Shown: positions 17,238 to 53,828 of the stretch, in pieces | How positions within the stretch are numbered: the first letter of the stretch is position 1 | How the letters are laid out: each line of letters begins with the position of its first letter | Source: Phoronis australis | Taxonomy: Eukaryota > Animalia > Phoronida | DNA length: 64,000 nucleotides | Direction of reading: 5' to 3' | Assembly (NCBI GenBank): GCA_002633005.1 | Contig: NMRA01000165.1 | Location: forward strand, 677,558 to 741,557 | Position numbers and translations under genes: made by a program | The notes under the pieces: generated by a model | The model's input: only the letters and a program-made list of their open reading frames with translations | Database searches by the model: none | Told to the model about the DNA's origin: nothing

Positions 17238-20200
17238 AGTTTAGTATGGGTATGCAATGGTGTTTGGTGCTTACCATCAGTCAGACTCCAAAAATTCAGA
17301 AGTCTGGAGACTAATACATGTAGTGTCAGCTACTTCATTGAAAAATCATAAGACAATTCATGTGCAGCAAAACGAAAATAAAACACACAAAGTTAACATT
17401 CAGACTGCATATAGGTGAACTTGGGTAATCCTGCAAAGAGATTTTGGAACAAAGTTGGGCAATATTTAAAAACTGTCCTGATTTAACTTATTGTTTATTA
17501 TGTTAGACATAGAGATGCAGCAGCGCAGGTTATACTGTACTTATGTAGCAAAACGATAAGATAGCCAAATATTAAACAAAAACCAAAGTAGTTTAGAGTA
17601 TAGTAATACTATATTGAGGCTGACACAGGCAAATTACACGCCATAAATCAAGTAAATAGAAAAGAACAAATGTGGTCACATTTACAAAATGCGAGCAAAT
17701 TAGGTGTACAATGAGACACCTTTAGTCAGCATAGACGACACGTCACGAAATGGAAATAACATTTTGTCTGACTACTTTTGACATACTGTATTTCAAATGT
17801 CTCTGAGTCTTGTATACATGAAATGTGCTACTGCGGCAATTCCATTGACTCAACAATCTTTTGTCACAGTTCAAATTGACGGTCTTCCTCAGCGATTCTT
17901 TTCATTCCAAAGGCATCAAATTGTGCGAGTTTCCCAGAACGATTGAGTGCTGCTAAACGGGAAAATATTTAATCTGCTGAGGCGAGAGACATTCTTCAGA
18001 ACATCAATATGACCAGGAGCAATACATTCATGGGTAACATATAATGCTTTGCTGGCTTTTTGTTTGTAATATCGTTAGGACCTTTCGGCAAATTCATCGA
18101 CGTCAATTAGAAGCTGGGTCCTAACAGGGTTGACTCTTCCATCAGATGCAGCAGTGAGAAACTGATTCGACTTATGGATCTTTGGCAAAGGCGTGGGCAG
18201 CCAGAATGATGGTTGGTCCCCCTCGTTTCCACTTGAAAAATGTGCCTGTAAATATTACAATTATATGCAACTTAATCCGTAAACACAAGAATTATATTTT
18301 CCATAAATAGCCTTTCCCCAAAGTATTTATTTTCACCATTCAAAATAGCTTGGAAGGATTGCCACTCACATATGCATGCAACCCTCATTGTGTGCAAGCA
18401 GCACTCAAAACAAAAGGTGTCGTCAATTAATCAAAATGTAAGTTCATTACTAAAACCTGAAAAACCATCAATTTTGATATATAGCATTGCCACGGCTTCG
18501 AAATGCCATAAAGTTAAGACAAGATCCAACACTCTTCATGCCACGATCCTGATTGAGAAAATTTTATGTTTTAGTACATGATTTTCAGGCTAAAAGGAAT
18601 ACAATTGCATCTTCAATATTTTTAGCTAAATGCACCTTTCAAAATTTGCCTCAGTGGTCACTAAAACAACCCGGAGCAACTATAAAAATCCTGTTATGAC
18701 CTATTTGGAGTACCTAGTAAGCTTTCATTACAAGCAGTCTTCCCTATCAGAGGAATTTTCAAATGTTGACAGTTGTGGTGAAATAACTGGAACAGAACTA
18801 AACGGATTGTGCACTTATGAACATCTCCTCAAATAAACATACAGTACAGTGTAGTTCAAGGTCTGTTAACGCTATCCATTGACTCACAAGCTCTGGCTCA
18901 AACACGCAAAACATAACTTATGCACCTAAAAATCGCATTGCGTGGAGCCAAATCCACTTTGTCCGAGAGACATGGTTGACAAGACAGTAAATACAGAATA
19001 CATGCAAAGTGTTTTGTCTGCAAATACAAGGACATTGTTACAGTCCATCAGTAATGTTTGCTAGCAGATGAGTTAGTGAGACCGTCACCAGTTTTTGAGT
19101 CAATGCACAGTTTACCAGCCCACCAGCCCTGTTTACATTTGAGGCAATTTGCGCAAACCTTGATGTTACATACTCCTGTAACAATGAACAACTTGTGCAG
19201 TAAAACTTCAGAGATGCAAAATTTACTGAATGCAAGGCATTTTTATTTGTCTATGAGGTTTATAAGCAACCACAATACAACTGAAATAAAAATCTACAAC
19301 AACTACTGTTTTGCTATCATTAAATGTTGATGCACTTAATCCTGGAACCAAGAATCTCAGAAAAAGGCTTTGTGTAACAACACTCCAATTCATTAAGTAA
19401 CTACTTACTAGTACTCTTTCTGTAGTAAGCTCAATACAAGTGGCTAACTTCTTTGGCAAACGCTTACAATTTCTGCATAGACCTGCAATAGAATTTTATG
19501 GAAAGTAGGCATAACAGAACTCCCAATAGAATGCTGTATTTTGAATCCCCAAATGTTTTCCCCAGTCTTGTTCATGAGGTTGAATGCTTCAGGTATTAGG
19601 GACCTTAATGGTGTTAAAACTTTAGCCATGGTAATTAAAATAGACCCCATTGTAATGGGGTTCCACTGCATATTTGGAAAATTATGTATCTTTGGTTATA
19701 CAGATAGAGCAATGTGAGAAATTGGTGTCAGCTAGGAGACAAGGGCTCGATTAAATCTTTTGATAATGGACACCAAGTTTCCACTTTTTACACATGCGTA
19801 TTCCTAAAATGGAATGTATTTCGACAAACCCTGAATATTGAGATAAAGTGAATATTTTACTAATACAAGTCAGTACTGGAAGAATTTACTAAAATTACTC
19901 TAGTACTCGAGTGTGTCGCTTTACGTACTTCATATAGGGTTGTGCCCTTCATGTCGACTGCAGTCAGAATCTAGTTGAGAAGGCAAATATAATAAAGTCG
20001 TTATCAACAGGTATAGACTATTGATGACCTGCAGCTGCATAACAACTTACCTGTGTAGTGATTCTTCAAAGGTGTCTTACCTTACATCTTAGTTGTCCGT
20101 GGTCGAGCTCAATAGTTCTGCTTTGGTGTGNTCTCGATTGTCGTCGTCACCCTCATCGTCGTCTTTTCGATTAGTTCCGCCAAGTGTCGCTCCTCCGAGC

Positions 20201-20705
20201 GCTCTCGTTTGTTTAGTCTTGACGTCCTCAGCTAATGGAACGTCGCTGACAGATGAGGCGGACACGGTTGGTGGGACATCATCAACAACGTCCATCACTT
20301 GACCACTAACAGGGTCAAGCATTCCGCCAACTTCCGAGGTTTGTTTATGCAACACATGTGTAATCGCCGGTGCGGTATCAATACACTTTCCACCTGGTTC
20401 AAGCGGAAATCGCAGCAATTCCACCAACTCAGCTATGGTGCTGCCCAACGCATCAAACGGGTCCACCCCAGCGGAGACATCCACAGTGACGTCCGATGGT
20501 GGATGGTTGGTGTCCCCCCCTGTCGCGCACTCTACGGGTGCTGTACCGCCCGCGCTATTTTCAGCGAACAGATGGCGTAAGCTTTCCAGCGTGTTGTCCT
20601 CGTCCGGGGTTGAAGTCAAGGGCTGGTATACGCCACAACCGGACGAGGGTGGGGGAACGCTGCTGACTTGCGATTTATGTGGGCTTGGAATGCCATGGAC
20701 CGGGG

Positions 20706-21635
20706 TTAAGCCCGAGACTCCGGTCCACTGTCGTTTTCCGAATGTTCGTCAAACTTCACAGTCCGAGACCCTACATTATTGAGCAGGGGGCAATCCCTTT
20801 TAATATGGTCCTTGCGCCCGCACGAAAAACATGCGCCACTCGAGGGCGACCTCGAGGCAGAACGCGGAGAACGTGATTCGTTGTAGGTTCTACCTTTGTC
20901 ACCCTGATCTCGGCCAGGCCTACTCCTGTCGCGGTCGCTAACAGCTAGGCGCGACAGGACCTTCTCAATGGCCTCACTGAGTGACCTCGAGGCAGAGCGC
21001 GGAGAACGTGATTCGTTGTAGGTTCTACCTTTGTCACCCCGATCTCGGCCAGGCCTACTCCTGTCGCGGTCGCTAACAGCTAGGCGCGACAGGACCTTCT
21101 CAATGGCTTCACTGAGACAGTCCTGGCTTTCGGCTAGAGAGCGACAAGACTCTTCCACCGCCAACATGCGCTGATCCATATCCCGCTCTGGGGGACCGTG
21201 GCGGCGTGCGGCCTGCGTGGGTGTGTCTCGTGCTTGGTTCACGGAGACGGGGGGCTCGCTAAATGGAGCAGCAGACCGACCATAAATCACACTGTGTGTA
21301 TGCACAAACCACTTCAGGGCGTCCACAGCGGCCTCATATGACGCAGGCCGAATACTCGCTGCGTACATGCCCGCAGCTTTGTTGTGGCACCCGTGACACA
21401 GCTTCGTAATTGCTTGTGTCTGAGCGTGGTGAGGGGAGACGTCATAAAACGCTTGGTTAGCCAGGGACAGGCAGCGGTCAGCCCAGTCATCTAAGGACTC
21501 GGAACTGCCTTGGACTGCGCTTGAAAACTGCAGTTGCGCGGTTTCGGGTAGTTGGTTTCCCGCGAACCTGCGTTCCATCTTAACCGCTATCGTAGTCAGC
21601 GAAACGTAAGGGGCATTGTCTGTCATAACGCTTAA
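20706..21635 (-). CDS. gag: Retrotransposon Gag, 5'-truncated (capsid-like region plus CCHC zinc knuckle)
   Basis: KMERRF..QLPETAQLQF...Q..ESLDDWADR..LA..AF capsid-like motif and CFSCGRKDHIKRDC (CX2CX4HX4C). Lies between the LTRs. Confidence 0.85.
   Translation of the reverse strand, partial: LSVMTDNAPYVSLTTIAVKMERRFAGNQLPETAQLQFSSAVQGSSESLDDWADRCLSLANQAFYDVSPHHAQTQAITKLCHGCHNKAAGMYAASIRPASYEAAVDALKWFVHTHSVIYGRSAAPFSEPPVSVNQARDTPTQAARRHGPPERDMDQRMLAVEESCRSLAESQDCLSEAIEKVLSRLAVSDRDRSRPGRDRGDKGRTYNESRSPRSASRSLSEAIEKVLSRLAVSDRDRSRPGRDQGDKGRTYNESRSPRSASRSPSSGACFSCGRKDHIKRDCPLLNNVGSRTVKFDEHSENDSGPESRA
20848..21117. repeat. 135-bp in-frame tandem duplication inside gag
   Basis: The 45-aa unit LSEAIEKVLSRLAVSDRDRSRPGRD(R/Q)GDKGRTYNESRSPRSASRS occurs twice with offset 135. 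Confidence 0.9.
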
Positions 21636-22021
21636 TCGTCGTGAGAGACCGTCCCGAGTTGGTATGTGGTGCAACTCGGGACGGTCTGGGGTCTACAGAA
21701 AACCATAGTTCAACTGAGAGTCTACACCAATGTGATAAACGAGAGTAGTTCTACTTGCTGCGTCAGCTGCTGGTATGCTTATCTCTTTTATGGCACACAA
21801 TGTGCGACTGGGCAAAGCGTTTTCAAAATAATGTGGATAAATCAGTGGAGTGTGAAACCCCTGAGGTCCCTGTCAAGTCCTCACGACAATTTTACGTTAT
21901 GTATAAGCGAAAAGTATTCGCTAGCTTTGCCCTCGAGGCAAAAACACAGCTGATCAACGCACTCTGCGCCCGTCATATCATTTGCTGCTACGTAGCGCTG
22001 AAATTTTTTAAAAAACGCCAC

Positions 22022-22097: not shown

Positions 22098-24982
22098 NTC
22101 AAACAGACCCTGGAATGGTTATTAATGGACGTACTTTAATGAACGCGCCGAGGGCTAGCGTGCTGGAGAAAAAAAATATGCAAATCCCTAAGACACGGCA
22201 CGTCAGAATGGACGCGCACAACACAAAAACGTAACAGTTATGAGAAAATACTAAGGGACGCTATCTACTTATACCAAGACAGCGTCAAAGGCCGTGTCGC
22301 GAGACAGGTGGCAAATCTGGGCAAAACTATAGATGGCTCAATTTTGCACTAACCCACCCGATCAAGCGAAGATAGTTTTTGGCCATGATATAATGTTTAG
22401 AGAACTTAAAAGACGTGTGGTAATAGCCTCAAAGAGAAGCAAAGTGGTCGCTACGCACTAGCACCTTCCGAGAATGTGTTGCCGAAACTTGAAAAAAAAA
22501 ACAAAAAAAAACTCAAAGTTACCGAAAAACAACGGATGTTCGCTACGCATCCGCTGCAGCTAAACTGCTTTAAAGAATTAGCTGGTCGCTACTCAGCTAA
22601 AATCCTCAAAAACAAAGATAATCTACAATTTCTAAAAAATCGTGACCCAAGGCACACGCGCAACGTCCGGGTCTTGCTTTTCCGCGACTTACGGCTCCCC
22701 GCCGGCGGAACGAAAAGCTCACCGAGAACAACTGCCGGGCGTGCCCCCGAAATTCAGAAAAAATAGAGCCTAGAGTAACAAATTCTCCGGTTCCCTCCCC
22801 GGGTTCCGCCAAAAATTGCCACTCGCGACTGATCGAAAGAACTAAAATAATCTACAGGAAGGTCTGGTCCGTCTCCACCTAGTCCCACCAGGTACGGAAA
22901 CAGGGTCCCTCGCGCAATCAAACTAGTCCGCTAAAAAGCAACTACGCCAATGTAGTGATTCCTCAAAGGTGTCTTACCTTACATCTTAGTTGTCCGTGGT
23001 CGAGCTCAATAGTTCTGCTTTGGTGTGTGGTCTGGGTATCGAATGCCACTCTGCATCCAAACATGTGTATCGGCCGCAGGGCCGCTTAATTAATATTCAT
23101 GATGCGCCCTCATTGGCCATTACCGGCATATGGGCCGGACAGCCAACGTCGGCAGTCTCCAAGACGAACAGCAGTCGTCTCTCGATGCCGACAGAGGGCG
23201 CGCGCGGCAGAAGGCCAGCGCAGCAGTGAGACAGGTCCAGTGACGTCTCACTACACCTGACCCAACTGGAATCGATACATTCTGTTCTTCCAGAAATTCT
23301 TTGTTGACTGTATTTCCACTTACATTCCAAACTCAGAGCCTTTCCAATGTTGAAGGTGGGCACATATCTTACTTTTACTTGGCCTCCATCTGATTCCATG
23401 CTGAGATCGACGATTTTCACAAACTGGGGGGTGAGGAGGCAAACTGTTGTAAACAAGCCCACTCTGACACTGGCAAGAATCAGCTGCCACTTTCACTCAG
23501 CATTGTCACTGAACGGGACTGGGTCGGTGACTTTAACATATTTCAGATGGCTTGCTATGGACTTGCTGCAATCAGTTAGTGCTTCGATTGCTTGCTGCAT
23601 GGTTTCGATATTCCTTTGAAGCTCCATAAACCAGATTTGAAGGATTATGCCAACGAACACACTATATTAACTACCACCACCTCATCAGCCATTTTTCTTC
23701 AGTGATATCAGAGACACCTGAAGGGCTCTTCATCAAAATGGTAATTCACAGTAAAAAAAAAACAAAAAAAAAACAAAGATACTAATTTCATATAATTTTA
23801 TTTGCTAAGAAATAATCCCAATAATTTAACAACCATTTGAGCACTTTTAAATCTCAAAACTCAACATTTTCCATGACTAGTAGCTATTGTCACAAGTGCT
23901 CACTTTGGCTGAGGTGGCTGCAAACAATTGCTCATTACTATATGAAGACATGTGTTCGCCGTGGTTTTGATGCCAAATATCTATTCTACTAAGATAGATC
24001 AAACCCACGATTAAGTTTCAAAGAGTAAAATTTGGCTTCAGCTGAGATTGACTCATTCAAACCTGGGCAAGTTATCCATGTTTTCTGCTTGTATGACCCC
24101 ATGACCTTTCAAACCCCAAAATGTTGAATTTAAGGTGCAACTTGACACTTTTATTTTTCATTTTTAGGAAGACAATGGATGACTTTATACAAAACAGTAG
24201 CTATTTCATTTTCTAGCAGCTTCTGTAATTTCCTACAATGTCACAAAAACTGTGATTATTGGGGTAAGTTCTGATAGTGGTTTTCAGTGAAAACTGATGT
24301 ACCCGACTTTTAAGCTACCTAACGCGATAGAATTTGTTTAAAGTGCATTTTAGTAATTACCATGAGAAAGTAAACAAAAATGCAAAATATGATCCAAATC
24401 CGTCACATAGGGTTTATCACCCCTGCATGGATTTTTGCCTGGTCTGAAGTGTACTGCACTCTTAATAGCACTCAAAAGCTGTGCTTTGGTCTTATCAAGT
24501 CAACAGGACTGTGATTATTAGTATTCCAAGTTAAATTTCAACAAAACACGCTGTTATGTGAGTAACTGACAGTTATGTAATCAAGAAAATTGGCTTCTGC
24601 CCACATGAGAAGAATGTGGCCACTGTAGGGGTAGAAAAATCTAAACATGTAATTAGGCAGATGTTAGCTACGAACGATCGCTGTTCGTACTACCCAAACC
24701 ATTCTGCAACTAACTTATATTCGCTTATGAGGACACGTATCGAACATCCTGGAGTGCTGTAATTATGGGACAGTACTTGATTGCTGGTGTTCATCGCATT
24801 GCGTCTGCAATCAGAAAAAAATAATGAACCTTGCTTCAACGTATGCCCCTCTCCTTCAGTTAATTAACTTCAGAAAACTATGTTCACACATTTTGAAAAT
24901 TCAGTGGTCATCAGTAAGTCTCATATCACCTTCTCACTGCCTCATCTCGACGCAAGAAGTTCGATCCGTGCTGCACCTCTCG

Positions 24983-27900
24983 TTAATTCCTTTTTCCTGC
25001 AAAACAAAACGTGCAAAAATAAAGAAAAGCCATTTTTAGAACACTTTAACACATTAAAACTCAGTGCCAATGATGATATCTTATGTGGCAACACATTTGG
25101 AAAACAGAAATTAAAACTGTATGTAATTTGGGCTAACCCTAAAAAATCCAAAGTATTGTTTACCTTTTAGGCATATACAGAATTAAATAATCAACTTCAA
25201 AATCCAACAATTATAAGCTTGCTTTGATCCAGCACAGATCAAAATCGAAACCGAAAGTCTATTGTAACTAATACCTTAAAACTGATGAACAAGCAGTTTT
25301 AAAAGTGTACTACCCGTGCTTGTATGGATCACAATAGAGGTAATGTCTCTTCAAAAATGATACGAAAGAAACAATTCTCACCTGACTTCTTGCGTTTCCA
25401 GTCCACCTTTTTAAACTCTTCCTTTGGTAAGCTTCCCAAAGATCTGCGGTCTGGAGACTGGGAACGTGTGACACCAGCACCAGACAATCCTTCGCAGTCT
25501 TGTAGCTCTGGTGTTGCAGCTGGGTAAGGTTGTTGGACCTCGTCTTCTGGAGAATGTTTGTCTTTAGACAACCCGTATGCCACTGGACCAGACCAAGTGA
25601 ACCCAATGTAGAAATACACCTTTTTATGCCTCCAGGTATCGTATTGTGCTGGTTCGGCAGATGGTAGCTTCAGTGTTTCGTCTTTCCAATCAAATCGCAG
25701 CTCGATGATTCCTAACTTGTCAGTAACATATCCTTCAAACTGACGCAGATTTCGTCTAACTTCTTGTGTGTTCCAAAATTTTTTTTTCTCACTGTAATTG
25801 AATCCAGTGTCAGCGCACACGAATCGCTGCCACTCTCTTCCTTTTCCAAGGAAAAATACAGTTTTGTCTTTGGCCCCAGAGCACAGGGTTTCTTCTTTTC
25901 TAAGAAATGGGAATTTTTTGTCATATTCCTTCTTCCACTGGGGGATCACTGTGTTAAGAGGCGAAGGAAGATTCGGATAGTTACCGTCATGATTGGGTTT
26001 GTAGCTCGGCCAATTGAACATGACATAGAAAAGGTAGGGTTCCAGATATATTGGCGAACTGGGAAGAGTTCCTCTGTCTTCGTAAAGCTTATTGCTCCAT
26101 GTGACCATCTGAGAGAATGATACGTCTTCTTCCGGAGTCTTCCACATGGTGGAAAGAATAAGATTTGCACCAAGCATAATCATTAAGTCTTTTGAAGATC
26201 TAGCGTCAGATTTCAAATTTGGTTTTATCAAACGACTTACAGTCTGCAGCTCTCTCGAACTCTGACATTTAGTCATGCTTAAAATGGAATTACCGCACAA
26301 TCGAATAGCCCTTCGCCGTCTGTATTCACATTTTTCCATTTCGTCCAGGTCTTTTGGAACTTCATCACTCTTCTCCTCAAAATAGAATTGCAGGGCTTCT
26401 TTGTTCTTCACAATTTCGCGGTGATAATAAGACTTCTGCTTCATCTGACTGGCATCGAGATGTTCTTCCCGCACCTGGCCCTCTAGATCCTCTGCGTCGT
26501 GAAGTGTTTGCTGAAGGGTTTGAGCAAAACTTTTCAGTGCGGTCAATAGATTGCATCCATTGACGTTTTTCCAAGGTGAAAGTACACCTGGATAAAACTT
26601 AGGATCAACCAAAAACTTGTGAAGACTTTTTTTGCCATTTAGACCTTCAACACCTTTTAAGAAATCTAGAAGTTTTAGCGTTATTTCGAATTCTCCGATA
26701 AATCCCGCCATATTTATCAAACCGTTGTAACTTTCACGCTTGCAACATGTTTGTGCGTTTTTAAAAGCTCTCATTGCTTTTAAGGCTGTTTCGATGGCAC
26801 ATGTTACGTCATTTGGGCTTAAGGGTTGTTTCTTTGTTGAGCCCCTTCCCACATCTGTGAGTTCTTTTGCAAACTGTAATTTGTATACTTGTCCTTGTGT
26901 GTCGTGAAAGTAAGAACTGTCTTGTTTTTTCTTCAATCCTTCTTCAGCATACCGTAGTGCTTCTTCGTAATTGTTCTGATAGGAATACAGGTAGCGGGCA
27001 ATCTGTTGTGCAATGAAAGGGTCTTCGTTAAAGATGTGATACCCCTTTTGTAGTATTGCCGCTGCTCTCTGATTACTTTCGTTACACGAGACGTATAATA
27101 TCAGGGGTGAAAATTTTGTTTTCTTTTCCGCCTCACGCTTTATAAGGATGTCACGGACTATTGTGCGCACACATTTCATGTGAGAACTGTGTGCGTAATC
27201 GGAGAAGATCTCTTCACAGTCTAGCAACTCTGTCATGATTTGGCTCACAGCTTGTTCGTTTGAGAGAATGGCCAGGATTTCCTCAGCTAAGATTCTGTTG
27301 CATGTGGTCAAACCATTGTGGTAGCTGATATGCTCGGCAGTAGACCCAATTACCAGTAAGTTCCACTCCTCACTGGTATGCCTTTCCCATTGGGATTGGT
27401 ACAGTCTCCCCCTAGCTTCTCTTTGTCGCCTGGCAGACATGACACCAAAAGAAAATGAGGTGCTAGAGGTTCTTCCGCTTTTCATAAGAAAATCAAAGGC
27501 GGCTGTTGGAACAGCTCTGAACTGTAGGTCGAAGGCATTTAAAATAGAGAGATACTTAAGTGCCCTTTTTTCCTTCTCATTTGTCATTTGAGACAGAAGC
27601 TTGCTAACGATTAGTCGAATAGCTTCGCGATCGAAGTTCGTTTTCATAACATTAAACGAAAACAACATCTCCGGATGAACCCCACGTTTGTCTTGACATT
27701 TCTTTTCCAGTTCTTGATACTTTTGTAAGAACCACCTCAGTTCTGCTTTGCTGAGTTTATGGCGCAAGACCAGGACCTCGTCACTTTCTATGACTGTTTG
27801 GCGACTACATACGAGAACAACGACACTAAACATGTCTTGGTCCACAGATTCCATGTCTATGTCTTCGTTCCTTGATTCCCACTTAGCTCGCTTCGCTTCA

Positions 27901-30675
27901 CATTCCAATTCTAATCTGAACGATCGGATTTTCTCTGGATCTTCGTCGTCAACTAATACAAGAACAGGGCGTCTTTTAGTTTCGTCGTCCTCTCCATAAT
28001 TTCTGAAGTTGAAGACGTGCTTGCTCGTCTGCATTGGAAGGATCCCTTTTACTACAGCACACCTGTATTTTTTCCTGAGGTTCCATAACACGTGTCTGCT
28101 CGTTGTTGTAGCACCCGCTCCAGGTTGATGGTATAAATATATGACACCAACACAATCACCGTCAACATATTTGGTTCTATTGCCATCAAGCGCCCCTTTA
28201 ACGACAGTCTTCAGTTTCTCGTGAATACTTCGTTTGCACACTTGACCTTCGAAAGCAAAGTTTTTCCAGCTAACCTTTCCACCCCTGAAAAAACGTTCCT
28301 CTTCTTTCTTCTTCAGATCCTCAATATTACTTTCTTTCTTCAGGAAGTCCAATTCTTGTTCACATTCGTCAACCCCGACAACTTCTAGAGATGTTAGATC
28401 GTTCTTCTCGCTAAGTTTAATTATTTCTTCTTCACATGTAGAGGGGATGTTACAATCTACAGTGAACCTGGGCTTCACAAGAACTTTGACTTGTTCTGAA
28501 ACAAGACGCCATGGTAATCCAGCTATGCTGTTATTCAGAAGTGAATCGTCGTCCTCGTTCTTGTATGTTCTCTTCACAATTTCTGTGTTCCAAGCATCTA
28601 GCAACTTCTCGTCTTCACACAAAACACACCACTGATTAGGAAAGGCTCTGTCTATCTCTGGAAACATATCCATCATTATAGGAAAGTCTTCAGATAGCAG
28701 TAAAAATACAATGACTCCACGGCCAGTTGGTACTTCATCTTTCAGCATACTAACCACCTTTCGTAATCTGTCCGTATTTCTGTTTCGCCAAGCAAAAAGA
28801 TCCTGAATTTTGTCGACTCCTTTATGGCCATTCATTAGTATCCATGGCATCGTGCTTTGTGCAAGAATTTTGTTGTCGTCTTTAGACCCAATTTCTCCAA
28901 TCTTCCGCATAGTGATCGGTTCATCCTCTTCTTCTAAGATACTGCAAATCCTACTTTCAGAATCAAAATCAAAAACTGCTCTCCACTCTATTTCTCTCAC
29001 GAAGGAGAACCTTTTAAGAATCGCATTTTCTTCTAGGTTGCGAGGTACTGAACTTGAAATGAGTATGGGAAACAATCCGTCATTGATGACATCATTTCCA
29101 AGAGTCAGGGCATAGGCAAGTTTCTCTATTTTTTCCATGAAAAACGACAAAGTCTTTAAATCGCTAGTTTCTTCGGTATGAAGTCTGACTTGTCGAAGAA
29201 CTGTTCTGAACTTCAGGAACGTTTTCTTTTTATCATCTTCAATCTTTGCAACTTTTTTGTCTATCAGTGCAAACAGTGATAAGTCTGTAGGTTGGGGTAA
29301 TGTGACAAAAATCTCTTCAACACATGAATTTGGTTTAACCACAATTTCTACAACTTTTAAGTCGTCGTTTCCACCCTTAACGTCAATCGAGTGCGGCTCT
29401 GAGATGAGAGCACTGACTACGTCACGTTGATCGTCAACAAAATATTTAAGAATCCGTTGTATTAAGGTATCTTTCAAACTGCCAGAATTTGGAATTCCTT
29501 CGACTGCACCGCTACCATCTTCGTTGGCTCGTATTCCAAAATGGATGACCGCATCTTGGTATGAATTTATGCAACCAGCAATTGTACTAACTGCTTCTTG
29601 AATACAATATGCATCAAATGTTGTAGTTGGCTTTCTACAAGCAATGTATTTGTGTATTGGGTGTAGAAGACTTCCTTCTTCAGACGGCGGTAACTCTTGG
29701 TTAGACCTATACACAAAGCCTGTGCAAATTTCATACGTCTCATGGCCACCCCTTGGTAGCGTACAGGTGTCCAGTTTATCGGCCTCATTCAAAGGCTTCG
29801 GTTGCTTTGGATCGTGTGTGGGCACAATGCAGGTAGGCTGGGGATCAGCCCAGTTGGATCTTATAATAAGACTCACTCCAAGAGGTAAGTTGGGAAAGTG
29901 TTTTGACATCGTGGAATCGTAAGTTGTGAAATCAGTGGACATCAATTGTTCCATTGCCTTTCCGCTGAACCTTAGGTTTTCGAACTCTCGTGCCTCCATC
30001 TCACTGAGCTCACATTTGTTTATTAGCCACTCTTTTATTTGTAGTGGAGTCATAGAGATCATTTTTTCTTTTCTTGACTGTTCCATGATGTGCTCTTTTC
30101 CTAAATTAATGAGAAAAAAATCGAGTTTTACGGGAATTCAGAGGTCTAAAGTGCTTTTGGTAAAATTCATCAAGCCTTTACGTTGTTGGGAGAAAGCAAA
30201 ATTCTAAAATGTGTAATCTCTAAAATAACTGCTTCTTTATATGTGAACGTTTCTTTTCGGTTTACACCATGTAGTAATAAATTGTTCTCAACGTTTCAAA
30301 ACTCGTGCTTATTTCTTCGTCAGGAGTGATGACTAGTTGGAGTAACAGTGCCTTATATGCTTCTTTATATGATTTGTTACCTTTTTCAGGAGTAACATCT
30401 TTCAATGGAGTGTCGTCGAGTTTTTTGGCTAAATGTGGCGTTTTTTCTAACAGTGCTGTGTATAACTTTTGATAACCGTCGTCTCCTTTTTGGCGGATAA
30501 TCTTCAAGAGATGTTCGTTTTTTTCAACCGTCGTTTTTTTACATTCGATCCACTCTTTCTGCTGATCTGACAAAACGTTTTCTTGGTACAACAAGTTCGT
30601 CACTTCCCACGTGTCAATGTCTTTAACAAGGTCTTGGTGATTCCTCTGCAGTCTCCATCGGTTCTGTTCATTCAT
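24983..30675 (-). CDS. SAMD9L: CARD-containing SAMD9/SAMD9L-like protein (CARD-SAM-AlbA_2-SIR2-like-STAND NTPase-TPR-OB), ~1675 aa
   Basis: Exons 30675-30381 (CARD), 30100-25382 and a probable short last exon 24996-24983. Alternatives are 24804-24791 or unspliced read-through to the stop at 25329. Family motifs: SAM (IKEWL...FSGKAM), IAGCINS..AVIHFGI, EIEWRAVFDFD, FFRGGKVSWKNF, Walker A YLYHQPGAGATT..RHVLWNLRKKYRCAV, Walker B PVLVLVDD, TPR DPFIAQQIARYLY and DTQGQVYK, C-terminal FFLGKG and KVYFYIGFTWSGPVAY. The symbol denotes the family, not 1:1 orthology. Confidence 0.9.
25247..25258 (+). promoter_or_regulatory. ISRE/IRF-E consensus (GAAACCGAAAGT) in the putative last intron of the SAMD9-like gene
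   Basis: Exact GAAANNGAAAGT match. Function is unproven. Confidence 0.3.
30381..30675 (-). CDS. CARD (death-fold) exon of the SAMD9-like gene
   Basis: MNEQNRWRLQRNHQDLVKDID..VTNLLYQENVLS..QKEWI......EKNEHLLKIIRQKGDDGYQKLYTAL...PHLA follows the caspase/Apaf-1-type CARD pattern. The phase-1 donor AAAG|gtaac (30380) and acceptor tttag|GAAAA (30101) keep the frame into the large exon. Confidence 0.85.
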
Positions 30676-31544
30676 ATTTACCTGTGGTGTATGAAAATAT
30701 GTTAAGCAACGCCGCAACACATGTTCTGACGTTGTTTAATGCACTTTTGAAAAGGCTACGGTCCACTGACACAGTAACTGAACCAAATGGCTAATCAGAG
30801 TAAATCGTACGGACCTATAACTCACAATGTCAGTACTATTAACGTCGTCACATGACCACTTAGTTGGACGCATGCGTGAATCTATGTTGACGAGAACGAA
30901 GTAGACGAAGGAGTCTGTGAGTTTAACGTCTCCTAGACATTTTAACCAATAAGGTAAGTTTGGCCACATTCGTCCGATGCATTGAGAGTTGACTCCTCAG
31001 CTTACACGTCACTTTGTAACCACATGTTATCATTCATAATGAATTTACCTGATGATATGAACACCGTTATTTTATCAGAAAGTTAACGTCTCACCGCCTC
31101 TGTGGCAGGTCGGGCAAAAAATGTCACAAGAAAGGTTAAAACGGATATTTAATGCTATCCAGTTATTTTGAAGTTTCGAGATCTTACTGGTCTGTTGTAA
31201 TGCCAATCGGTTCATCCACACGTACAAGCAAGTGCTTTCGACTTCACTGAATTCGATGATTACCAACCGCGTACACCTCATCCATTTCGAACGTCACAAG
31301 CCGATCGCGCATCCAATTGACTTCCCAAATAGAAAAGCTAAGGGCGTTACGTAGCTTGAAAAGGCTCCGTCTGAAATTTTATGGGGCATCGTGAGCGAAG
31401 CAAGGGAAATACTCACAACATGGTCATCTCTTGATTCTCGAAAACAAAATTTCAGTAACCATTCTACGGACAAAATTTGGTACTACTTGAACTCAGAAGT
31501 TTATGAAAACAGATGTCGACAGATTCTGTAGTTGCGTCAGTGAT

Positions 31545-31893
31545 CCTCCCCGCTGGTTCCCTGCGTGCCGCAAGGTGGTAGCCAGCACGCAGGTATCACT
31601 TAATTTTCCTCGGGGTTTTTTTTACACCGGCTTTTCTGATTGGCTGGTCGAATTCTCAACAGGCAGGGCTTTATGCAAACAAACTGGCTATTAAACATTA
31701 CAGCTGAAACGAAATAGTTGCTGCTACACCACTTGCATGACAAGACTAAAAATCGTTCATAGTCCGTCATTTTTTCCCGTTGTTGTAAAGCTAGCCAATG
31801 ACTGCCGAGGTTACATCAACGAATTTGGTAAAGCGCGTGCTACTGCGTGATACCTGCGTGCTAGCTAGGCACGTAGGGAACCAGCGAGGTGAT
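31545..31893. mobile_element. MITE-like element with inverted ends
   Basis: cgctggttccctgcgtgcc...agcacgcaggtatcac is inverted as gtgatacctgcgtgct...ggcacgtagggaaccagcg. Confidence 0.6.
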
Positions 31894-52071: not shown

Positions 52072-53828
52072 ATGATTGCCTTGGCAAGAATATTCAGATG
52101 TCGTCGATATGTGGTAAGTTTAGCAGGGGGATATCTCAGTATAACTGTTTTGCACTCTTCTCATAGCCTTCTTAATTGTCGCGTGAGATGTAGACCTCGT
52201 TTCCTATATGCCTACAAGCAATCATGACAACTGAGCAGTGTCCGTTCCGTCGCAACGGCCAGGTTTATGTAATTACGAAATGCTATAACTTTCCAGGGGT
52301 TTCGCATAAGGAGAGCCGTTCGTCTACCAACTGGTACCTTGACAATTGCTGCTTGCCTGGTTCTTAGTTATTACTTGTGGCCATACTTCGTGGATAGTGC
52401 CAGTAAATCACTTCGTATTCTCAAGAATTTATCAGTGCACGGTATGTTTTCTAGTCTACATGTTGTCAATACTTCCGGGACGGCCAAGCTATATACATCA
52501 GTCAACCTACGAATCTACCTAGCTGCCTACCTATGTACTACACACGCTCCTAATTAAGTATTCTTTAAACATAACGATGCTTTGTAACAACACTCCATCC
52601 TCGAAAGTTTGGAGTCGCTTAGTCGAGCCGAATCACGGAATAAATGTCTTTGAATTTTGTCGCATAGTAAACGAAACATCGCAGAAGTTGAAAACATGCC
52701 ATTAGGATCTGGTTTCAATTACCACCTGTAGGATTGTACTGTACGCGCATCCGTTTCCGGAAAAGTGAATTCTTGGCGTGTACTCTATTTCCTTATAGAT
52801 TTGCGTGAAACCCGACAGCCAAGGTGCAGAGCGGCAGAACTTTCCGGGCTTGTCGAAGAATTTCGATCTCAAAGCAACCGGTTTATCGTTGACTTTTTCT
52901 CGTTACAGAGCTTCTTAACTTCCCGCCTCTGGTACAGTTCGAAGAGACTGAAAAGAGGATTAGCGCGCAACGACAGAGACATCGAAAACTCTCCGTGGAA
53001 CATTTCTGCCAGAAACACAAAGAAAATGTAATCCTGGACATTACCACGATCCCGCAGCGAAATCTTGCTAACTTGTTGTTCAATGACAAATACAGTGCTA
53101 TCTACTGCTTTGTACCGAAGGTGGTATCTACAAACTGGAAGCGAATATTTTTGTTACTGCAAGGAATGCCGCTAAAATCAGTGTTGGTCATGGATCGAGA
53201 AAACGTTCACATGAGCTCGATACCGACGTTGGGGGACTATCATGATAACAAGACCGCCATGATTCACAGGCTTCGAAGTTATACGAAGTTCCTCTTCGTT
53301 CGAGATCCATGGGAGAGGTTATTGTCGGCCTACCGCGACAAATTTGCTAATGACAGCTATGAGTCCCCTCAGTCCAAAAGATGGCTGAGCTATGTCCTGA
53401 TTTCTCGAAAATATTCAAGGCCCGCTTATAGTCAGACATTCGAGTCTTTCATAAAATTCCTCGTAGGCGAACCAGACGCTGTAAGCCGTTTGTCGCCACT
53501 GTTTCCCGAAAACGAACACTGGGCTCTCTATAATGACCTGTGCCACCCGTGCGCTGTTCATTACGATGTCATTGGAAAATATGAAACGCTGGAAGAGGAC
53601 ATAGGCCTTGTCTTTAGGACGATCAACATAACGCATTTAGGTTTCAAGTTCCCAAAAAGGACAACACGGGAACAACTGTCGAGAAGTACCTCTTCGATAA
53701 TGAAGGCTCAGTATTCCACAATAAGTGAAAGCTTAATCCAGCGTGTTAAAAAACTGTATTCTCAAGACTTCGAGTTGTTCTCGTATTCATCACGTAATCC
53801 CGCAAACCGTGGAAAGGAAAGGAAATGA
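52072..53828 (+). CDS. Carbohydrate sulfotransferase, CHST11/chondroitin 4-O-sulfotransferase-like (Sulfotransfer_2 family), ~368 aa
   Basis: Model: exons 52072-52113, 52297-52441, 52909-53828 (1107 nt in frame; the first exon is least certain). Type II membrane anchor TLTIAACLVLSYYLW. 5'-PSB YCFVPKVVSTNWKR and 3'-PB KFLFVRDPWERLLSAYRDKF. Also NEHW, LCHPC..YDVIGKYETLEED, and LYSQDFELFSY. Confidence 0.9.

Follow-up and report, generated by a model that had tools for sequence, protein, structure and literature searches.

The 64,000-nucleotide stretch of the Phoronis australis genome analysed here (contig NMRA01000165.1, positions 677,558 to 741,557; hereafter the window) carries on its minus strand a gene predicted to join an N-terminal CARD to a SAMD9-type STAND core. 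The open reading frame (ORF) track shows two separate minus-strand frames, 30735-30262 and 30137-25329, which the gene model brings together by splicing. The coding part of the CARD exon (30381-30675; 295 nt, 98 codons plus 1 nt) begins with the ATG at 30675, and an acceptor at 30682, 6 nt 5′ of this ATG, places the likely exon start at 30681. Predicted intron 1 (30101-30380) is a 280-nt, phase-1 GT-AG intron with a T-rich tract. It is followed by a stop-free large exon of 4,719 nt (25382-30100) encoding SAM, AlbA, SIR2-like, NOD, TPR and OB regions, by predicted intron 2 (24997-25381; 385 nt, GT-AG, phase 1) and by a predicted last exon (24150-24996) that supplies 14 coding nt, the stop at 24983, the 3′ untranslated region and an AATAAA signal at 24155-24150. 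The three coding pieces give a predicted product of 1,675 amino acids with no internal stops, and a four-profile scan of the 64-kb window found no second copy of the gene.

The sequence-only reading had proposed that the two frames are joined by the 280-nt intron at 30380-30101 and that the N-terminal exon encodes a CARD; the intron coordinates proved correct at the sequence level, and the exon passed the Pfam check, scoring 57.2 bits against PF00619 (E 1.7e-15; cut-off 23.9). The nearest solved sequences to this CARD, both at low identity, are those of CARD8 (E 2e-7) and Apaf-1 (E 5e-4). Splice sites were ranked among the 3,655 GT and 3,853 AG sites of the strand with a rough matrix of textbook frequencies, which puts the intron 1 donor in the top 1.3% and its acceptor in the top 0.65%; both are the best-scoring sites within their stretches. 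The intron 2 donor is also the best of its stretch. Its acceptor ranks third among the candidates, and contigs of run X1, a run taken as RNA only by guess, that cover 24549-24959 at at least 99% identity run straight across the two stronger ones, at 24805 and 24623, with no joint. Site 30681-30682 receives a donor score as well as an acceptor score and could permit a CARD-skipping, SAM-first isoform. Intron 1 also contains a repeat of about 100 nt (30250-30358), evident from reads with loose ends, which many reads of another transcript match at about 88%.

The large frame matches SAMD9 structures in a phmmer search (E 1e-68) and has 101 homologues, the best named of which are gastropod proteins annotated as SAMD9-like; no Pfam match to NACHT or LRR was found in the window protein. 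A divergent SAM-fold domain lies at about residues 107-189 (29829-30077). It was missed by Pfam and by a custom SAM profile and was recognised only by predicted fold, in a structure model covering residues 1-346 of the large exon (mean predicted local distance difference test, pLDDT, 84). The SAM region of this model (residues 8-90; pLDDT about 90) matches SAM domains with Z scores of 7-8.5, among them that of PHC3 (Z 8.5, root-mean-square deviation 2.6, 70 aligned residues); the scores are middling, yet nearly all matches for this stretch are SAM domains. The following AlbA_2/Schlafen-like domain (29163-29738) superposes closely on the human AlbA domain of 7ksp (Z 22.1, root-mean-square deviation 2.2 over 188 residues; Foldseek E 1e-11). 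Residue mapping and fold match then delimit a SIR2-like, Delta and NOD (STAND) region (27116-29075), and profile, model and fold match delimit a TPR helical region ending in a C-terminal OB fold (25571-27115; OB at about 25868-25571). The TPR matches in Pfam are weak, and the OB tail matches the vertebrate C-terminal profile with an E of 3.4e-8. A second model, of the 1,197-residue core from SIR2 to OB (pLDDT 84, predicted template-modelling score 0.82), aligns with the human SAMD9 monomer 9zjr at template-modelling scores of 0.78/0.83 (E 1.9e-53); the corresponding score is 0.16 against Apaf-1 and 0.16 against NOD2.

The nucleotide switch of this core is of the SAMD9 type. Mapping to human SAMD9 recovers the characteristic Walker A motif, with Gly in place of Lys and the upstream His756 (28130), the Walker B pair Asp816-Asp817 (Asp816 at 27950) and the sensor-1 Arg865 (27803). 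The His of the winged-helix domain (WHD) is replaced by Asn1033 (27299), at the position of human H985, which supports autoinhibition and whose loss activates SAMD9 (PMC13600222). On its sequence and modelled fold, the gene is an intact member of the SAMD9 family of STAND proteins. The description of its core as a full SAMD9 in the sequence-only reading holds for the order SAM-AlbA-SIR2-NTPase-TPR-OB, which is intact, and fails for the AlbA tRNase site, which is degenerate.

The same combination of CARD and SAMD9 core is present in other invertebrates. Among 60 loci fetched from metagenome contigs, 10 have a CARD ORF on the same strand, 5′ of the core ORF, a proportion that becomes 8 of 12 where at least 2 kb of upstream sequence is available. 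One of the ten (L028) is identical to another (L026) and was left out of the Pfam scan; the nine scanned all exceed the cut-off. In database proteins the two parts also occur within one chain: the Pfam CARD scan covered 82 of 147 new representatives, picked as top matches or by long N-termini, and 18 of them pass the CARD cut-off. With a local CARD profile run on all 249 proteins, 25 score above 40 bits, a count that includes the window protein and the 20 seeds, and three more match weakly. The named carriers are Mytilus, Potamilus, Solemya, Littorina, Sinanodonta, Babylonia and Ridgeia, with Physella just below the cut-off, and the phyla represented among CARD-bearing relatives with a name are molluscs, annelids and brachiopods. 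When the CARD exon was used as a query for longer proteins, none of 70 candidates matched, which is weak evidence.

Variations on this architecture were also seen. In seven of the ten CARD loci the stretch from the CARD to the SIR2-like core contains neither SAM nor AlbA, any trace of them scoring no better than E 0.17; in these loci (L004, L008, L012, L026, L028, L050 and L052) the CARD exon is predicted to be spliced directly to SIR2-like-STAND-TPR-OB, a minimal CARD-SAMD9. Locus L044 has a tandem CARD exon (L044:2612-3157). Four SAMD9 relatives (P0174, P0204, P0239 and P0269; bivalves where named) carry a DZIP3-type HEPN domain N-terminal to a CARD or weak CARD. Other arrangements, in P0158, P0183, P0147, P0216 and P0197, comprise CARD-core-AIG1 GTPase, kinase-SAM-core, PYRIN-SAM and ubiquitin-like-SAM (amphioxus, sea star).

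These relatives bear directly on the predicted splice. In nine of the ten CARD loci the best donor is in phase 1, and the best acceptor is in phase 1 in eight and tied in two. As in the window, six of nine related loci examined have an acceptor-like AG that follows a T-rich tract and precedes the CARD ATG by 3-6 nt. RNA reads from four runs, mapped twice (18-19% of each raw run), yielded no spliced joint at either intron in any run, with a depth near intron 1 of about one read or less. Five contigs of run X1 match the large exon and 3′ untranslated region at at least 99% identity, and none matches the CARD exon at that level. The raw reads on the gene are mostly partial and less than 90% alike, so they may derive from paralogues, and because depth is too low the missing joint counts neither for nor against the splice.

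Were the two frames not joined, a CARD-only transcript would continue past the intron 1 donor until the stop at 30262, and the ATG at 30086 or 30062 would open a SAM-first protein, with the donor-like site at 30681 offering a route by which the CARD exon could be skipped. The missing joint would fit this arrangement, as would the higher donor score of site 30681 (5.5, against 3.5 for the intron 1 donor) and the record of most close tree neighbours as lacking a CARD. Against it stand the conserved phase-1 donor and acceptor, the acceptor-like site at the same position before the CARD ATG in six of the nine relatives, and the continuous CARD-core chains annotated in molluscs and an annelid. SAM-first calls made from ORFs alone demonstrably miss CARD exons: P0163 corresponds to the core at locus L044, where CARDs lie upstream, and P0105, another ORF-only call, clusters with the CARD-bearing Ridgeia model (comparison with P0252). 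We regard unjoined frames as highly improbable, with a CARD-less isoform possible alongside the main one, and the CARD exon is very probably spliced to the large exon. At the sequence level, homologues and the conserved intron phase lend good support to the predicted CARD-core fusion and the putative CARD output.

The family divides into two groups. The sample consisted of the top 150 matches to the window query and is biased toward the second group; a core tree was built from 154 of 165 rows, with 11 excluded because their core spans were not within 400-800 residues. Group A (50 rows) contains vertebrates, coral, hemichordate, amphioxus and sea star, and none of its members scored as a CARD protein. 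In group B (104 rows) the window protein is accompanied by the named molluscs and the annelid. The split receives an SH-like approximate likelihood ratio test (SH-aLRT) value of 99 in an unrooted IQ-TREE analysis of 76 hand-picked rows. The WHD His is absent from several group-B proteins as well as from the window protein and is therefore not a family-wide feature.

This division is mirrored in the AlbA nuclease site. Human SAMD9 cleaves tRNA-Phe, which E184A, E196A, E218A and D241A each abolish, and binds tRNA through K198, K214 and R221 (PMC10246899). The four catalytic positions are occupied in the window protein by E239 (E184), K249 (E196), E267 (E218) and A290 (D241), and the three binding positions by I, Y and S, respectively, the K214 column lying beside a gap and being the least certain. 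Of the 33 group-A rows aligned over the full AlbA, 29 have the exact acidic tetrad, which none of 90 group-B or 25 CARD-bearing proteins has. Scaffold residues F222, C226, N228, G233 and G238 are conserved in both groups alike. Position 196 alone is acidic in 33/34 group-A, 9/89 group-B and 1/25 CARD-bearing proteins, and basic in 41/89 of group B. At the level of alignment, E196 is the robust marker of the degenerate site. Loss of D241 had also been considered diagnostic, a proposal weakened by the presence of an acid within five residues of this position in 66/89 group-B rows and, two to three residues after it, in the window protein (E292/D293). E184 and D241 have been lost independently in two group-A SAMD9 paralogues, P0073 (fish) and P0233, and some of the four proteins with a DZIP3-type HEPN retain an acid at the E196 position.

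It is quite likely, as far as residue mapping can indicate, that the window protein lacks SAMD9-type tRNase activity, the AlbA fold probably being retained as a structural or binding module. A protein with two outputs, in which the CARD signals and AlbA remains a nuclease with a rearranged site or another RNA substrate, seems unlikely. Such a protein would be consistent with the intact AlbA fold (Z 22.1 to 7ksp), the retention of E239 and E267, the acids E292/D293, which could replace D241, the E218 kept in 55/90 group-B proteins, and the retention of AlbA in most of that group. Loss of E196 alone abolishes cleavage by human SAMD9, however, and in the window protein its charge is reversed (K249), with none of the three tRNA-binding residues in place. 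Within group B, R, K, N, Y, E and H all occur at position 196, which is freely variable, and no new invariant residue emerged among the 16 columns tallied.

The residue changes could also reflect relaxed selection in a decaying paralogue, an account to which the long terminal branch (1.06) and the scarcity of reads matching the gene in three RNA runs might lend weight. Its chance seems almost negligible, as the 4,719-nt exon is stop-free, the ATP site is conserved, the fold match is full-length and the same changes are common to group B.

Several other elements were noted in the window. An element of about 340 nt (31548-31889), which lies upstream of the CARD ATG at a distance of about 870 nt, is very abundant in RNA reads. 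Its terminal inverted repeats are nested (22 nt at 91% and 21 nt at 95%); it is likely a miniature inverted-repeat transposable element. A Gag-like ORF on the minus strand (20706-21692), internally duplicated and with a zinc knuckle of the CCHC type (E 4e-5), is followed with overlap, in another frame, by a second minus-strand ORF (20089-20748), the pair being a likely remnant of a long terminal repeat retrotransposon. On the plus strand, 52893-53828 is a carbohydrate sulfotransferase exon (PF03567, E 4e-50), whose best named match is 33% identical.

Prior computational work on SAMD9 death-fold fusions, suspected in the sequence-only reading, does exist. Mekhedov, Makarova and Koonin (2017, PMC5445408) described domains of the CARD, Death, PYRIN and FIIND types in fish and invertebrate SAMD9 proteins and predicted apoptosome- or inflammasome-like particles, so neither the architecture nor the apoptosome idea is new. 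They list Lingula anatina XP_013415988.1 as CARD-AlbA_2-SIR2-NTPase-TPR-OB, the same domain order as in the window protein bar SAM and with the same apoptosome or inflammasome prediction. In their account death folds replace SAM, and no SAM is given for the Lingula protein; in contrast, CARD and a divergent SAM occur together in the window protein (by fold) and in 22 of 24 other CARD-bearing proteins (21 by profile). Their paper predates the tRNase work and, in the parts consulted, is silent on a degenerate nuclease site. The residue pattern may be visible in its alignment supplements, although identification of the catalytic residues came later.

Among annotated sequences, Littorina XP_070195880.1, Mytilus VDI65140.1, Potamilus KAK3606490.1, Ridgeia KAK2174874.1 and Babylonia P0002 carry CARD-SAM-AlbA-core in one chain. 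These proteins, recorded in RefSeq/GenBank as SAMD9-like or CARD domain-containing, have no acid at position 196 except for Asp in Potamilus. The mollusc and annelid CARD-SAMD9 proteins are about 28-35% identical to the window protein, most of them with a longer CARD-SAM spacer, and no characterised member was found among them in the literature. Human SAMD9 and SAMD9L (9zjr, 7ksp), at about 22-27% identity, share with the window protein the SAM, AlbA and SIR2-like domains, the NOD with His/Gly Walker A, Walker B and sensor-1, the TPR and the OB. The window protein differs from both in its extra N-terminal CARD, and from human SAMD9 in having Lys for E196, Ala for D241 and Asn for H985 and in lacking K198, K214 and R221. 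Bacterial Avs9 shows the same AlbA-SIR2-STAND-TPR-OB order without CARD or SAM, but keeps its acidic AlbA site and needs it for killing (PMC12680541). CARD, molluscs and invertebrates are unmentioned in the passages of that paper that were searched, as is CARD in those of PMC13245274. In the literature covered, which left most subscription papers outside its scope, we found neither a degenerate AlbA site in invertebrate or CARD-bearing SAMD9 nor a SAMD9 caspase platform in molluscs.

The logic of CARD, STAND switch and repeat sensor is shared with Apaf-1/CED-4 and the NLR sensors. The NTPase and repeats of the window protein are of the SAMD9 type, not the NB-ARC/WD40 of Apaf-1 or the NACHT/LRR of NLRs, and about 600 residues (SAM, AlbA and SIR2-like) separate its CARD from the NTPase, whereas in Apaf-1/CED-4 the NB-ARC follows the CARD directly. 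Oligomerisation of Apaf-1 and NLRs clusters their N-terminal CARDs, which recruits a CARD caspase or adaptor.

We lean slightly towards an intracellular SAMD9-type immune switch that signals by CARD-CARD recruitment of a caspase or adaptor instead of by tRNA cleavage. The CARD itself is probably the main output: with the AlbA site degenerate, the model shifts from a CARD added to SAMD9 to a CARD likely replacing the nuclease as output. By extension from human SAMD9, the resting state would be closed and ATP-bound, and sensing of a trigger, probably viral, would lead to opening and to oligomerisation mediated by SIR2/SIR2 and OB/SIR2 contacts. On the model of Apaf-1 and NLRs, this oligomerisation, perhaps aided by SAM, would cluster the flexibly tethered CARDs, which could then nucleate a CARD partner, either an initiator caspase or an adaptor.

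A number of observations weigh against this interpretation, beyond the missing spliced joint, the retained equivalents of E184 and E218 and the acids near the D241 position described above. The ten CARD loci represent only about five lineages, the seven of them without AlbA form one subclade, and many group-B proteins show no CARD, where ORF-only calls may have missed the exon. In a bivalve subclade (Mya), seven members retain an acid at position 196 and have weak CARD-like and HEPN-like matches. The window protein, on its long branch, falls inside group B in the first tree and next to group A in the second. The residue pattern follows one phylogenetic split in an unrooted tree, and so constitutes an association, not a cause. 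Fourteen group-A proteins, Acanthaster included, have neither AlbA nor CARD; nuclease loss therefore does not require a CARD, and the proposal that CARD gain always goes with AlbA loss is ruled out. Human SAMD9 has been observed only as monomers and dimers (PMC13600222), and some fish members of the SAMD9 family carry CARD or PYRIN (PMC5445408).

The nature of the CARD partner is a further point at which the evidence divides, and the chances of a caspase and of an NF-κB- or interferon-type adaptor are about even. The CARDs of RIG-I/MDA5 and NOD1/2 serve transcriptional signalling, and those of CARD8 and Apaf-1, the nearest solved CARDs to that of the window protein at low identity, recruit caspases. 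That the CARD feeds a transcriptional pathway through a MAVS-like or RIPK2-like adaptor, or serves self-assembly only, with no caspase platform at all, is decidedly unlikely, even though signalling by way of MAVS-TBK1-IRF3 has been reported for human SAMD9 (PMC12015307), which also counts against our interpretation. The caspase alternative gains from a survey in which molluscs, annelids and brachiopods are reported to keep CARD caspases after losing APAF-1, with neither PIDD nor PYCARD found, leaving CRADD as the only CARD activator (PMC11463336); SAMD9 is not mentioned there.

Since CARD caspases are reportedly kept in these three phyla without APAF-1, PIDD or PYCARD, and CARD-SAMD9 proteins occur in the same three, CARD-SAMD9 emerges as a candidate CARD-caspase platform. 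A broader view, which we put forward only tentatively and consider rather doubtful, is that animal SAMD9 has two branches, one killing by tRNA nuclease and the other CARD-bearing, with a dead or deleted nuclease, acting as a caspase platform in place of APAF-1. The latter branch would be large, expanded in molluscs and annelids, and found in phyla reported to be without APAF-1, PIDD and ASC. If this is true, an antiviral STAND chassis would have swapped an enzymatic for a death-fold output within animals, much as bacterial Avs proteins swap effectors, and the CARD-bearing SAMD9 proteins would provide a concrete candidate for the activation of CARD caspases in molluscs, annelids and brachiopods.

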